From positions 2,478,162 to 2,542,161 of the forward strand of contig CP064976.1 in assembly GCA_016699445.1 (NCBI GenBank): a stretch of DNA of 64,000 nt. The letters run 5' to 3'. The translations under genes were made by a program, and so were the position numbers. Below the pieces are notes generated by a model, which was not told where the DNA came from, searched no databases, and saw only the letters and a list, made by a program, of their open reading frames with translations. Every line of letters starts with the position of its first letter. Within the stretch, counting starts at the first letter, position 1. This DNA is from Deltaproteobacteria bacterium (GTDB lineage: Bacteria > UBA10199 > JACPAL01 > GCA-016699445). Shown in pieces: positions 21,291 to 59,466 of this stretch.

Positions 21291-21494
21291 TTAACCCCCT
21301 CCAACTGCACGGATGAGTTCGATGACGTCATTGTGCCGGATTGTGTGTGTTTCAAACTGTGAATGGGAAATAATTTCCGCATTGATGGCAATCGCCAGAG
21401 CTTTGTTTTCTATTTTGAGCTGTGAAAGTAGGGTGGAAAGAGAAATTTCCGAATCAAAAGTCTGAATCTGTCCATTGACAGTAATCGTAATCAT
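21291..21494 (-). CDS. thiS: Sulfur carrier ThiS
   Basis: 67 aa, ITVNGQ start, C-terminal VGGG. Confidence 0.93.
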   Translation of the reverse strand: MITITVNGQIQTFDSEISLSTLLSQLKIENKALAIAINAEIISHSQFETHTIRHNDVIELIRAVGGG

Positions 21495-21582
21495 GTTTCC
21501 CTCCGCCCGCATTATCGGGATCAGGTTTTAAGGGTTTCTCTGTCTCAACAGAGATCTCAGCTGACCATCAGCACCCCTGATT
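21495..21582 (-). ncRNA. TPP riboswitch
   Basis: Minus strand reads AGGGGTGC...GCTGAGA...ACCCTT AAAACCTGATCCCGATAATGCGGGCGGAGGGA, the canonical TPP aptamer core, directly upstream of thiS. Confidence 0.95.
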
Positions 21583-21583
21583 T

Positions 21584-22177
21584 TTAGTGAGTCTTTATTC
21601 CATTAATAGACTGCAGTTCGATAATAGCTTCGTCATGCTGTTGTACTTTATGTGCAACATAATCCATTTTCTCATTAAGCTCAGAAATTCCCTGTGTGTT
21701 TTGATCAACTTTAAGACTTAATGAAGCAATATCACCTTTAAGTTCAGTCCTAAGATCCTGCATATCACCTTTAAGTTCAGTCCTAAGATCCTGCATATCA
21801 CCTTTAAGTTCAGTTCTAAGATCCTGAATATCACCTTTAAGTTCGGTTCTAAGATCCTGAATATCACCTTTGAGTTCGGTTCTAAGATCCTGAATATCAC
21901 CTTTAAGTTCGGTTCTGAACGTTTCAATTTTGTCTACAAGTGATCTTCTTGTAAAATCTAATTCGTCTCTAATATCTTTGATATCGAGTTTGATGGTTTG
22001 AATCTCTTCTTTCATGCTTGCTTGAAATCCAAGCAAACCTTCAGCAACAGCTCTAAACTCACTTTTCAGATCCTCAACCAAAACTGCAGTGTAATGGGAA
22101 ACTGATTCTGACTTATTGGAAATATCAGAAACTTTTTTGGTGCTTTTAAGGGCTTTTTTAGACGTGCTTTTTTTCAT
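21584..22177 (-). CDS. Coiled-coil protein with 11-aa (hendecad) repeats; resembles DUF1640/BDR-type proteins
   Basis: Likely start MKKSTSKK at 22177; basic N-terminus, then VLVEDLKSEFRAVAEG, then TELKGD(I/M)QDLR repeats. Confidence 0.7.
   Translation of the reverse strand: MKKSTSKKALKSTKKVSDISNKSESVSHYTAVLVEDLKSEFRAVAEGLLGFQASMKEEIQTIKLDIKDIRDELDFTRRSLVDKIETFRTELKGDIQDLRTELKGDIQDLRTELKGDIQDLRTELKGDMQDLRTELKGDMQDLRTELKGDIASLSLKVDQNTQGISELNEKMDYVAHKVQQHDEAIIELQSINGIKTH
21729..21916 (-). repeat. 5.7 tandem copies of a 33-bp unit (coding VNTR)
   Basis: Plus-strand unit ATATCACCTTT(A/G)AGTTC(A/G)GT(C/T)CTAAGATCCTG(C/A) starting at 21729, 21762, 21795, 21828, 21861 and 21894 (partial); no spacers. 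Confidence 0.95.
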
Positions 22178-26782: not shown

Positions 26783-27590
26783 TGTCCCTTCAACAAACAG
26801 TCCAAAAACCAGTAGAGATTTTGGAAAAATCATTCTCTCGTTTATTCATGAGTTGGGTGAGTTTTTGTTTTTTACCCGTGAGTTTTTTCATTGGCTTTTT
26901 CAAAGGCCCTATCGATCCTCTTTGATTGTTCAACAAATGGAATTTATTGGAGTGCGTTCGCTACCGATCATTCTTTTGACTGGTGGTTTTACAGGAATGG
27001 TCTTTGGTCTGCAGACAGGTTATGCCTTTCGTCTTTTTAATGCTGGAAGTTTTGTGGGCTCGACTGTGGGCCTTGCGTTGACTCGTGAAATTGCTCCTGT
27101 GTTTACAGCTTTGATGGTAGTGGCGCGGTGTGGTTCGGCTATGGCAGCTTCCATTGGAACCATGAAAGTGACCGAACAAGTCGATGCTTTGACCACGATG
27201 GCTGTGAGTCCTATTCACTATCTGGTTGTGCCACGCGTGGTGGCGTCGGTGTTGATGATGCCATTGTTGACGGGTGTGTTTATTGGGGTGGGCACTTTTG
27301 GTGCTTATATCGTCGCTACGGGACTTTTGAATATTGATCCCAATGCTTTCATGCAAAAGCTTACCTATTATGTGGATTTTGATGATGTGTTTGGTGGCAT
27401 GATCAAAGCCGCTGTCTTTGGATTTTTTCTTTCGATCATCAGCTGTGAGCGTGGTTATAAAACAACCAAAGGCGCTGAAGGTGTCGGTCTCTCAACAACT
27501 CAAGCAGTTGTGATTTCTTCTGTGTCCATTCTCATTGTTGATTATTTTCTCACTTCCTGGATCCTCGAATTTTTTTCGGGGGATATGTGA
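26782..27590 (+). CDS. mlaE: MlaE-family ABC permease (apparent frameshift near 26821)
   Basis: GVRSLPIILLTG.F.GMV, REIAPVFTALMVVARCGSAMAASIGTMKVTEQVDAL motifs; probable ATG overlaps the alr stop. Confidence 0.92.
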
Positions 27591-27618
27591 TGATGGGCGC
27601 TTCTAAAAAATATGTGGG

Positions 27619-27705
27619 TGTCATCACGAGGAGGCCGAAGGCCGACGTGGTGATCTCATACAAACATTTGATTAGGGAGATCGCCACGCTACGCTCGCGA
27701 TGACA
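27619..27705. repeat. 87-bp branched palindromic element (family 2), intergenic copy
   Basis: Outer arms TGTCATCACGAG/CTCGCGATGACA, inner arms CGTGGTGATCTC/GAGATCGCCACG, small GGCC-GAA-GGCC hairpin; homologous to 58166-58255. Confidence 0.88.
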
Positions 27706-27709
27706 GACA

Positions 27710-28474
27710 ATGCAGCCTATGATACAGTTTCAAAATGTGACCAAATCTTTCGGCACTCAAGTTGTGTTGAATCATATTTCATTTGAAATCCCCGCAGGAA
27801 AATTGACAGTAATTTTAGGCCCTAGTGGTGAAGGTAAATCAGTACTTTTGAAACATATTATTGGATTGATGAAGCCAGACGAAGGCAAAGTCATTGTCGA
27901 TGGTGTGGATCTCTGGTCCTTATCTGACAAAGAGAGGACTGAATTTCGGAAAAAATTTGGAATGCTTTTTCAAAGTGCTGCGTTGTTTGATTCGATGACA
28001 GTTTTTGAAAATGTGGCTTTTCCTATAAGAGAACATACGTCGTTGTCGGAAGAAGAGATTAAATCAAAAGTTTTGGAAAAATTAAAAATGGTAGGATTAG
28101 AAAAGGCCATTGATAAAATTCCTTCAGAACTTTCCGGTGGTATGCGTAAACGTGTGGGATTAGCGCGAGCGATTGCTCTGGAGCCTAAGATTCTTTTGTA
28201 TGATGAGCCGACGACTGGTTTGGATCCTTTGATGACAGAGTCGATTAATCAGCTCATTTATGAAACCCAAAAGAAACTTAATGGTCAAAATTCTGTGACT
28301 TCAGTGGTGATCAGTCATGATGTGGAATCGACATTTCGGGTTGCTGACTTGGTTGTGCTTTTGTATCGCGGACAGATTATTGCCGAAGGACGTCCGGACG
28401 ATTTTAAAAACGGTAAGTTTACACATCCTTTTGTGAAAGAATTCTTAAGGGGGCATTTTGAAAAAAACATCTGA
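27710..28474 (+). CDS. mlaF: MlaF-family ABC ATPase
   Basis: Walker A GPSGEGKS, signature LSGGMRKRVGLARA, Walker B LLYDEPTTGLDP, SHD. Confidence 0.95.
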   Translation: MQPMIQFQNVTKSFGTQVVLNHISFEIPAGKLTVILGPSGEGKSVLLKHIIGLMKPDEGKVIVDGVDLWSLSDKERTEFRKKFGMLFQSAALFDSMTVFENVAFPIREHTSLSEEEIKSKVLEKLKMVGLEKAIDKIPSELSGGMRKRVGLARAIALEPKILLYDEPTTGLDPLMTESINQLIYETQKKLNGQNSVTSVVISHDVESTFRVADLVVLLYRGQIIAEGRPDDFKNGKFTHPFVKEFLRGHFEKNI

Positions 28475-57931: not shown

Positions 57932-58150
57932 ATGGTTAAAACAATAGATCTCAAATCCACCATACACTGTCGTCAGTGCGGCAAGAAGATTGATCTAGAT
58001 CCTAATCCTTACCGTCCTTTTTGCTCCGATCGCTGTCGGAAGATAGATTTGGGAAAATGGTTTGGAGAATCTTACCGGGTCCCTGATAAAGAAATTCCTA
58101 GTGAGAATTTTCAGGAAAATAATTTAGATGATGAGGAGAGAGAAGAATGA
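57932..58150 (+). CDS. yacG: DNA gyrase inhibitor YacG (zinc finger)
   Basis: CRQC...YRPFCSDRCRKIDLGKW...Y.VP. Confidence 0.92.
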   Translation: MVKTIDLKSTIHCRQCGKKIDLDPNPYRPFCSDRCRKIDLGKWFGESYRVPDKEIPSENFQENNLDDEEREE

Positions 58151-59466
58151 AAAAAACAAAGACCATGTCCTTGCGAGGAGTCCGCCAAAGCGGACGACGT
58201 GGCAATCTTATGAAGTTATCGGGAGATCGCCGCGCCCTTCGGGCTCGCGATGACAGCCGATCTCCCAGTGCGCATCTGCGTTTTTTGACTCAAAATTTTG
58301 TCATGAACACCTACAACCGTCTGCCTTTGGTATTGACCAAAGGGAAGGGGGCTTATGTGTGGGATGCAGATGGAAAAAAGTATCTCGATTTTTTCTCCGG
58401 ATTGGCTGTGAACAACTTAGGCCACTGCCATCCCAAGATTGTCGCGGCAATTCGGAAACAAGCCTCAGAACTGTTACATGTGAGTAATGTTTTTCATATT
58501 CCAACACAATCCATGCTTGCTGAAGAATTGGTTAGGCATAGTTTTGGTGATAAGGTTTTCTTTTGCAATAGTGGTGCTGAAGCCAACGAAGGTGCAATCA
58601 AGCTTGCTCGAAAGTATTCGTATAAGAAATTTGGGATGGGTCGTCATGAAGTGATCACGATGAAAAATTCGTTTCATGGACGTACGCTCGCGATGATCAC
58701 GGCGACAGGTCAGGAAAAATATCAAAAAGGTTTTGATCCTCTGATGCCGGGTTTTCAATATGCAGTTTTTGGAGATTTGGAATCGATAAAAAATACGATT
58801 ACAGAAAAAACCTGTGCGATTTTGATTGAACCCATTCAGGGTGAAGGTGGTGTGAAGATGGCACCTCCTGAATATTTTCAAGCATTGAGAAAATTGTGCG
58901 ATGAAAAAGATATTCTTCTCATTTTTGATGAAGTGCAAACAGGTGTAGGGCGTACGGGAAAACTTTTTGCCTATGAATATTTAGGTATCGAACCCGACAT
59001 CATGACCTTGGCCAAAGGTTTAGCTTCCGGTGTCCCTATTGGAGCCTTGGTCGCTACAGATAAGATAGCTCAAGCTTTTGAACCTGGTGATCACGCCTCC
59101 ACTTTTGGGGGAAATCCTCTATCAACAGCCACAGCCTTGGCGACTCTCAAGACGATCTATCAGGATGACCTACTGGAAAATGCTCAAAAGATGGGAAAAT
59201 ATTTGTGTGATCAGGTTCGTAAACTTTCTCAAAAATTACCCAGCATGATTTTAGAAGTGCGCAACAGAGGCTTGATGATCGCCATTGAGTTATCGATTGA
59301 TGCTAAACAAGTAGCTCTGAAAGCAATTGAGATGGGTCTTCTCATCAATGCGGTTCAAGAGAAGACTTTGCGCATTCTCCCTCCATTGACAGTCACGAAG
59401 AAGCAGGTGGATGAGTTTATCGGAAAGTTAGCGAAGAGTATTAGGGAGAGTAAACAAAGCTCTTAA
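58147..59466 (+). CDS. argD: Acetylornithine aminotransferase with repeat-derived N-terminal insert
   Basis: YLDFFSGLAVNNLGHCHP, NSGAEANEGAIKLARK, SFHGRT, EPIQGEGG, DEVQTG, LAKGL; ATGA overlap with the yacG stop. Confidence 0.93.
   Translation: MKKTKTMSLRGVRQSGRRGNLMKLSGDRRALRARDDSRSPSAHLRFLTQNFVMNTYNRLPLVLTKGKGAYVWDADGKKYLDFFSGLAVNNLGHCHPKIVAAIRKQASELLHVSNVFHIPTQSMLAEELVRHSFGDKVFFCNSGAEANEGAIKLARKYSYKKFGMGRHEVITMKNSFHGRTLAMITATGQEKYQKGFDPLMPGFQYAVFGDLESIKNTITEKTCAILIEPIQGEGGVKMAPPEYFQALRKLCDEKDILLIFDEVQTGVGRTGKLFAYEYLGIEPDIMTLAKGLASGVPIGALVATDKIAQAFEPGDHASTFGGNPLSTATALATLKTIYQDDLLENAQKMGKYLCDQVRKLSQKLPSMILEVRNRGLMIAIELSIDAKQVALKAIEMGLLINAVQEKTLRILPPLTVTKKQVDEFIGKLAKSIRESKQSS
58166..58255. 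repeat. 90-bp branched palindromic element (family 2) in the argD frame
   Basis: TGTCCTTGCGAG...CGACGTGGCAATCT...AGATCGCCGCG...CTCGCGATGACA; homologous to 27619-27705; length is a multiple of 3 with no stop in the argD frame. Confidence 0.88.

Follow-up and report, generated by a model that had tools for sequence, protein, structure and literature searches.

The closest described relatives of the system reported here are the Ssn nucleases, single-domain GIY-YIG proteins of ∼94 amino acids that bind a hairpin repeat only when it is single-stranded and cut adjacent to it (Chenal et al. 2025, Nat Commun 16:2388, PMC11893778). This repeat, with the consensus CGTCATTCCCGCGMAVGCGGGAATCYRG, is named NTS in Neisseria and SRM in general. 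The ssn genes are typically flanked by it, an arrangement described by the authors as identical to that of an insertion sequence, and transformation of N. meningitidis is modulated by SsnA together with NTS (PMC11893778). Two other groups of palindromic repeats are also relevant. Rickettsia palindromic elements (RPEs) lie in frame in unrelated housekeeping genes, where they are translated and tolerated (Ogata et al. 2000; PMC10969869; PMC1779305), while doublets of repetitive extragenic palindromic (REP) sequences, called REPINs, are moved by RAYT transposases, which are Y1 enzymes of the IS200-like type (PMC3116915; PMC3733652). Here, we describe a 90-bp element within argD, the acetylornithine aminotransferase gene of a deltaproteobacterium (assembly GCA_016699445.1, contig CP064976.1). 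It is located in a stretch of 64,000 nucleotides (positions 2,478,162 to 2,542,161 of the forward strand, hereafter the window) and, judged from its sequence, appears to be an inverted doublet of two Ssn-type hairpins, that is, a cassette without its gene.

The element covers positions 58166-58255 of the window, corresponding to nucleotides 20-109 of the 439-codon argD open reading frame (ORF); the range 58147-58260 given in a first-pass annotation of this DNA additionally includes the upstream ATG. That annotation had recognized a homologous 87-bp copy at 27619-27705, and the shared ends and inner arms it quoted are correct, with 79% column identity between the two copies in our alignment. 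Both fold more stably than shuffled sequences (z −3.0 and −5.2), and the argD element has a stable fold on either strand.

The genome consists of one contig of 2.75 Mb with a G+C content of 41.8%. Iterated nhmmer searches identified ∼31 copies of the element in it, 29 of them short (76-108 bp) and two long (361 and 367 bp), and the same seven-part layout of arms, small hairpins, and center is common to all 31. A pattern describing half an element matches the genome 56 times, compared with no match for the reversed control; together with the copies found by nhmmer, this demonstrates that the element is not due to chance. In the long copies, ∼296 nt take the place of the loop between the same ends and encode a protein of ∼96 amino acids, in which Pfam detects a GIY-YIG domain (PF01541, residues 5-77, E value 4e-15) and no second domain. 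Because this nuclease gene lies between shared ends in the long copies, the short ones appear to be gene-less derivatives of an Ssn-type GIY-YIG mini-cassette, comparable to MITEs (miniature transposable elements with inverted repeats). Earlier, a Y1 transposase or a GIY-YIG nuclease had been proposed as a possible neighbor of other copies, and it is a GIY-YIG gene that was found, inside the two long ones. A resemblance to the GTCATTGCGAG...CTCGCAATGAC type of repeat, noted at that stage, was likewise borne out: this is the type of hairpin that flanks Ssn nucleases (PMC11893778). One of the long copies is intact, while the copy at genome position 1912963 may be a decaying ssnA. With the nuclease ORF as query, NCBIfam returned no specific model, and a sequence search of the PDB yielded no Ssn structure, the nearest entries being UPF0213 proteins at 6e-6. 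A literature search with the terminal sequences retrieved unrelated primers only, and one for “GIY-YIG” plus “MITE” nothing relevant.

A single hairpin with the sequence GTCATxyCGAG...CGTGGy'x'ATC makes up each half of the element, and its variation between copies reveals which structure is conserved. The residues xy (positions 7-8 of the outer arm) occur as four types, CG, CA, GG, and TG. They always fit the inner arm of their own half, and the two halves vary independently of each other. Pair counts on an alignment restricted to the arms of 21 distinct copies gave 97.6% pairing and 24 compensatory cells for the two local hairpins, a score that none of 500 shuffles reached. A hairpin formed by the whole element, by comparison, shows no compensatory changes and does not score above shuffles; of its two variable pairs, one fails to pair in 11 and the other in 16 of the 21 copies. 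These pair counts rule out the whole-element branched hairpin as the selected structure. Instead, the selected unit appears to be the single local hairpin, pointing to the single-stranded DNA substrate of a nuclease rather than to an RNA structure of the entire element. Of the first-pass proposal of a branched hairpin with G-U-compatible arms under selection as RNA or single-stranded DNA, the whole-element fold thus has to be abandoned, whereas a single-stranded DNA hairpin for each half agrees with the local covariation. The G-U compatibility itself arises because a TG-type left half opposes a CG-type right half in this copy, and it is not a feature of the family.

We then asked whether the argD copy is part of the protein. 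Translation in the frame of ATG 58147 gives the peptide SLRGVRQSGRRGNLMKLSGDRRALRARDD, confirming that the element is placed in frame between the ATG at the yacG stop codon and the conserved VMNTY; MKKTKTMSLRGVR is the peptide that a start at 58147 would give. Two of the three forward frames of this copy are closed, and the one left open is the frame joining ATG 58147 to the conserved LTQNFVMNTY. The start at 58147, favored already in the first-pass annotation, is the best-supported one based on its Shine-Dalgarno sequence, the junction ATG of congeners, and substitutions between strains, though it is not proven. A Shine-Dalgarno motif comparable to the GAGGAG upstream of 58147 is found before none of ATG 58165, 58210, or 58303.

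Comparison within the genus is consistent with this assignment. In the congener G001, yacG and argD are adjacent, the argD ATG overlaps the yacG stop codon (ATGGTTAA) and is preceded by GAGGA 8 nt upstream, and the open tail reads MVKKTKKMKCKLVVKNTGKLVIPNDKSGHIRFLTANYV. A third species of the genus shows a TAA-a-ATG junction and the tail MKSKAALKSTALSSDHIRFLTQNFV. Neither of the two carries the element at this junction. In all three species, an ATG at the yacG stop is followed by an open variable tail ending with H(I/L)RFLT.N(F/Y)V, and the tail of the present ArgD minus the 30 codons (MKKTKTM-SRSPSAHLRFLTQNFV) has a length similar to the congener tails. Since more distant relatives start ∼12-17 residues ahead of MNTY, with ..IIELTQ.YV, the LTQNFV stretch is coding. 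Between the present genome and a 97%-identical sister strain (Logan assembly of SRR12404947), argD differs by 39 substitutions, three of which are located within the element. In the 58147 frame, each of the three is a synonymous change at a third codon position, and all precede the ATG in the central loop, an outcome with a chance of roughly 0.02-0.04 were the region neutral. Each of them is a departure from the hairpin consensus in one strain or the other.

Two other starts have to be weighed against these observations. If ArgD began at the loop ATG 58210, the left hairpin would be an untranslated spacer and only the right hairpin (∼15 residues) would be translated. This ATG is kept in the sister strain, the closely related copy that precedes a gene for a CsgG-like protein has a comparable in-frame ATG in its loop, and a 418-amino-acid product is on record for the genome. 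However, no Shine-Dalgarno sequence is located upstream, compared with GAGGAG at a distance of 8 nt for 58147, and the three synonymous substitutions all fall into the hairpin that should then be untranslated. Moreover, three species keep the junction ATG, and another gene caller picked the 439-residue form for the sister strain. We therefore regard a start at 58210 as unlikely. The second alternative places the whole element in an untranslated leader, where the hairpin would act as RNA or DNA only, for example in yacG-argD coupling or mRNA stability, and ArgD would begin at ATG 58303 (MNTY) or a non-canonical codon just upstream. The stable fold on either strand would agree with such a role, and other copies are truly intergenic (before dapA and between mlaE and mlaF). 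But LTQNFV is conserved as protein across relatives, its helix is modeled with a predicted local distance difference test (pLDDT) score near 80, and the whole-element structure lacks support from covariation. In the argD frame, no stop codon interrupts the 156-nt stretch in either strain, and the tails of two other species are open as well. ATG 58303 is not preceded by a Shine-Dalgarno sequence, and neither a promoter-like nor a terminator-like site was found on the plus strand. Downstream of the element, the first ATG, GTG, or TTG codon is TTG 58285, and this is CTG in the sister strain. Overall, we give a start at or near 58303 a small probability.

Translation through the argD element from a start at 58147 (or 58165) thus remains the likely outcome by these comparisons. 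In an AlphaFold2 model, residues 1-26 have a pLDDT of ∼33 and the conserved helix formed by residues 40-51 one of ∼80; because of the low values for residues 1-26, the insert is placed in a floppy tail. It would most likely contribute 30 extra flexible Arg-rich residues that the enzyme tolerates.

The argD copy is not an isolated case. At least seven of the 29 short copies are located in coding frames, which bears out the genome-wide propensity that had been suspected from the window. The further in-frame copies, at least six, affect NeuB, a GFO/IDH/MocA oxidoreductase, TolB, the CsgG-like protein, and two lipoproteins. In NeuB, the doublet lies within the domain itself, where the Pfam match extends over 268 residues for 241 profile positions, and in the oxidoreductase it is found between the two domains. 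The TolB copy occupies the n-region of the signal peptide; the start codon and an AAGGA motif are kept in the congener, whose TolB is 25 residues shorter and has a 28-residue signal peptide. In the CsgG-like protein, the element precedes the hydrophobic core and is read, as in argD, in the SLRGVRQSGRRGNL frame. Two paralogous lipoproteins contain the element without any start codon between it and the lipobox. The NCBI gene calls take in the element in four cases (TolB, NeuB, and both lipoproteins). Since the in-frame copies are read in at least three different frames, no particular peptide is selected.

In five copies (TolB, the CsgG-like protein, the two lipoproteins, and ArgD), the element starts 18-19 nt past the likely ATG, a spacing that could reflect either target preference or survivorship. 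The intergenic copies hug gene ends, one being located 2 nt past the dapF stop codon and another ahead of dapA. At the site of the second window copy, mlaE and mlaF of G001 overlap by GTGA. The region 27588-27721 of the window contains ∼40 extra nt with partial junction repeats (ATATGTG...) in addition to the 87-bp element, which suggests that the mlaE-mlaF junction was duplicated upon insertion. The positions of all features are compiled in Table 1.

Table 1. Position of the argD element, its parts, and related copies. Coordinates refer to the window unless marked as genome positions.
Feature	Position	Strand	Remarks
yacG (Pfam YacG)	57932..58150	+	TGA stop overlaps argD ATG (ATGA)
GAGGAG, Shine-Dalgarno-like motif	58133..58138	+	8 nt 5' of ATG 58147
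argD, acetylornithine aminotransferase ORF, 439 amino acids	58147..59466	+	Pfam Aminotran_3 over residues 55-431
Left hairpin unit, TGTCCTTGCGAG + GAGTCCGCCAAAGCGGACGA + CGTGGCAATCTT	58166..58209	+	TG/CA type
Outer-left arm, TGTCCTTGCGAG	58166-58177		
Small hairpin, left	58178-58197		20 nt
Inner-left arm, CGTGGCAATCTT	58198-58209		
Central loop	58210-58222	+	13 nt; first codon is the in-frame ATG, ArgD start according to NCBI; the nuclease gene occupies the same place in long copies
Right hairpin unit, inverted, GAGATCGCCGCG + CCCTTCGGG + CTCGCGATGACA	58223..58255	-	CG/CG type
Inner-right arm, GAGATCGCCGCG	58223-58234		
Small hairpin, right	58235-58243		9 nt
Outer-right arm, CTCGCGATGACA	58244-58255		
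Rest of N-terminal tail, SRSPSAHLRFLTQNFV	58256..58302	+	HLRFLTQNFV part kept as protein in relatives, modeled helix
Second window copy, 87 bp	27619..27705	+	Between mlaE stop (27588-27590) and mlaF start (27710 or 27719)
Intact long copy (ssnA cassette), 367 bp	genome 2477752-2478118		45 bp upstream of window start; 96-residue GIY-YIG ORF at genome 2477797-2478084
Second long copy, 361 bp	genome 1912963-1913323		ORF frameshifted in an A-run near the 3' end
In-frame doublets mid-NeuB and mid-GFO/IDH/MocA oxidoreductase	genome 568504-568582 and 565976-566069		One sugar-biosynthesis cluster
Five near-start copies	genome 1653927-1654002, 1751023-1751121, 1089361-1089468, 1755699-1755800; window 58166		

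The surroundings of several copies show additional features. Directly 3' of the argD element, the flank GCCGATCTCCCAG (58256-58268) has complementarity to the inner-right arm and is similar to an inner-left arm. A similar sequence, GGTGATCCCC, occurs in the argD tail of G001, a genome without hairpins of this family; it was considered as a remnant hairpin and set aside as possibly due to chance. An 82-bp short doublet is located 44 bp upstream of the intact ssnA cassette, and the pair covers genome positions 2477627-2478118, which are 535 to 44 bp ahead of the window start. A 76-bp hairpin doublet is part of a composite MITE of ∼155 bp with the terminal inverted repeats CCAAAATTCCGCAG...CTGCGGAATTT(T)GG (genome positions 715868-716022), of which five near-identical copies are present at 92173, 1676026, 2108674, 2139129, and 2338101. 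A copy of this composite MITE lacking the doublet, which could serve as an internal empty site, was not found in the genome. An Rfam scan revealed no family at the element. Its sole match in the window was a thiamine pyrophosphate (TPP) riboswitch on the minus strand (21481-21588; 72.6 bits, above the Rfam gathering threshold).

The hairpin family is distributed in a patchy manner. Compared with 56 matches in the present genome, the hairpin pattern is found 0 times in G001 of the same genus and 0-1 times in genomes of the same family and order. Four distant genomes of the same class contain 25-122 matches and encode Ssn homologues with 53-63% identity, which are located between outward-facing GTCAT...GAG hairpins. 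A scan of named genomes identified further homologues (45-62% identity) in Planctomycetota, Chloroflexota, Cyanobacteria, Bacteroidota, Bacillota, Patescibacteria, and others. In these genomes, GTCATNNNGAG is present within 200 bp at 59 of 80 loci, and on both sides of the gene in cassette orientation at ∼32 of 80. The argD, tolB, and mlaE/F sites are empty in congeners, with flanks too diverged to define exact junctions, whereas the sister strain has a copy at each of the five sites that were checked. At three of four loci, its short-read contigs break off within the hairpins, so these repeats fragment assemblies. Because of the patchy pattern counts and the five occupied sites, the family appears to have arrived after the genus diversified and to have expanded before the two strains split, and it was probably acquired by horizontal transfer.

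The same data bear on the idea that the hairpins are host-domesticated sites, for example for the control of recombination or transformation as proposed for NTS of Neisseria, and that the argD copy is kept for such a function. The role of SsnA/NTS in meningococcal transformation and the clustering of copies at gene boundaries would be in line with domestication. Yet the family is wholly absent from congeners, and the argD copy is drifting away from the consensus of the hairpin (with A5C and C12T in the present genome and a C-to-T change in the sister strain). In addition, the variety of reading frames among in-frame copies gives no indication of peptide selection. We consider domestication highly improbable.

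Based on these observations, we propose that the 90-bp element represents an Ssn-type cassette in a non-autonomous form similar to a MITE or REPIN. Its unit would be GTCATxyCGAG-[small hairpin]-CGTGGy'x'ATC, arranged as an inverted pair, and the same units flank the gene of the ∼96-residue nuclease. The family presumably entered this species horizontally after the split from its congeners and then multiplied in the genome, a spread that would depend on the nuclease acting on hairpins in single-stranded DNA. One copy would have inserted 19 nt past the argD start codon, in a lineage-specific, Lys/Arg-rich disordered tail. Being open in the argD frame and a multiple of three bases long, it could be carried along and translated as 30 residues. 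For this overall explanation, a gene-less Ssn-type doublet translated in frame within the ArgD tail, we estimate a probability of about 0.7.

A number of points weigh against this explanation. With regard to mobilization, GIY-YIG enzymes cleave DNA, and joining by them is not known. The elements show no clean target-site duplication, their flanks being devoid of a short direct repeat, and there was no strain-level empty site among the five sites checked in the sister strain; for both reasons, the insertion mechanism is one that we can only infer. The inserted length is itself ambiguous by 1 nt, as illustrated by tolB, where the net insertion must be 75 and not 76 nt, and we have down-weighted the length modulo three of TGTC...GACA as a test for coding accordingly. 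None of the 62 hairpins fits the degenerate SRM motif as published, and the seven matches of this motif in the genome do not coincide with elements. As for translation, NCBI places the ArgD start at the loop ATG, so that only the right half would be translated, and the argument from synonymous substitutions comprises three sites. The N-terminal helix is not obligatory either, as ArgD proteins of the Thermotoga type begin just before MNTY. A fold of −44 kcal/mol located 19 nt past the start codon could hinder translation according to the structure prediction. Overall, ArgD starting at 58147 is likely yet unproven.

Both ingredients of the proposed explanation have already been described, Ssn and SRM in 2025, and palindromes in coding frames under the names of RPEs and in-gene REPs. 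What is found here is the combination of a cassette, gene-less doublets, and several in-frame insertions in one small genome, and it links two literatures, one on Ssn nucleases and their hairpin repeats and the other on RPE-type palindromes translated in housekeeping proteins. Annotation is affected, too: where genes bear such inserts, their start codons are called inconsistently, as illustrated by the 418- and 439-residue forms of ArgD. More tentatively, inverted doublets could be the general non-autonomous form of tiny elements with a ∼95-residue GIY-YIG nuclease, moved in trans, preferring gene junctions within operons and the first few codons of genes, and persisting as translated Arg-rich insertions. 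If this were true, Ssn-type nucleases could explain protein-coding palindromes such as the RPEs of Rickettsia.

The similarity to the Ssn/NTS system extends to the anatomy of the repeat, since each half begins with GTCAT, followed by a stem that is closed by ATC. A single-domain GIY-YIG protein of ∼94-96 residues encoded between inverted hairpins, the many orphan repeats, and the patchy distribution are shared as well, and in both long copies hairpins are present on both sides of the gene. In contrast to the published repeats, the hairpins described here are longer (29-45 nt) and contain an inner small hairpin, and nearly all orphan copies are inverted doublets that reproduce the layout of the cassette exactly. 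Roughly one in four is located in a coding frame, compared with 2% of NTS inside genes in N. meningitidis. Taken together, the family appears to represent an Ssn-type cassette with a variant hairpin.

Its short copies resemble MITEs in sharing their termini with a longer, enzyme-encoding copy, and REPINs in being non-autonomous inverted doublets of short hairpins that also flank a single-copy enzyme gene; in-gene copies are known for REPINs, too. Unlike in REPIN systems, the long copies carry a GIY-YIG gene rather than one for a Y1 transposase, and the terminal motif is GTCAT...GAG instead of GTAG or CGTC. With RPEs, finally, the elements have in common that palindromic repeats are found in frame in protein-coding genes. 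RPEs measure about 100-150 bp, and the accounts in PMC10969869 and PMC1779305 name no mobilizing enzyme for them, whereas the elements described here share their genome with an autonomous GIY-YIG partner cassette.

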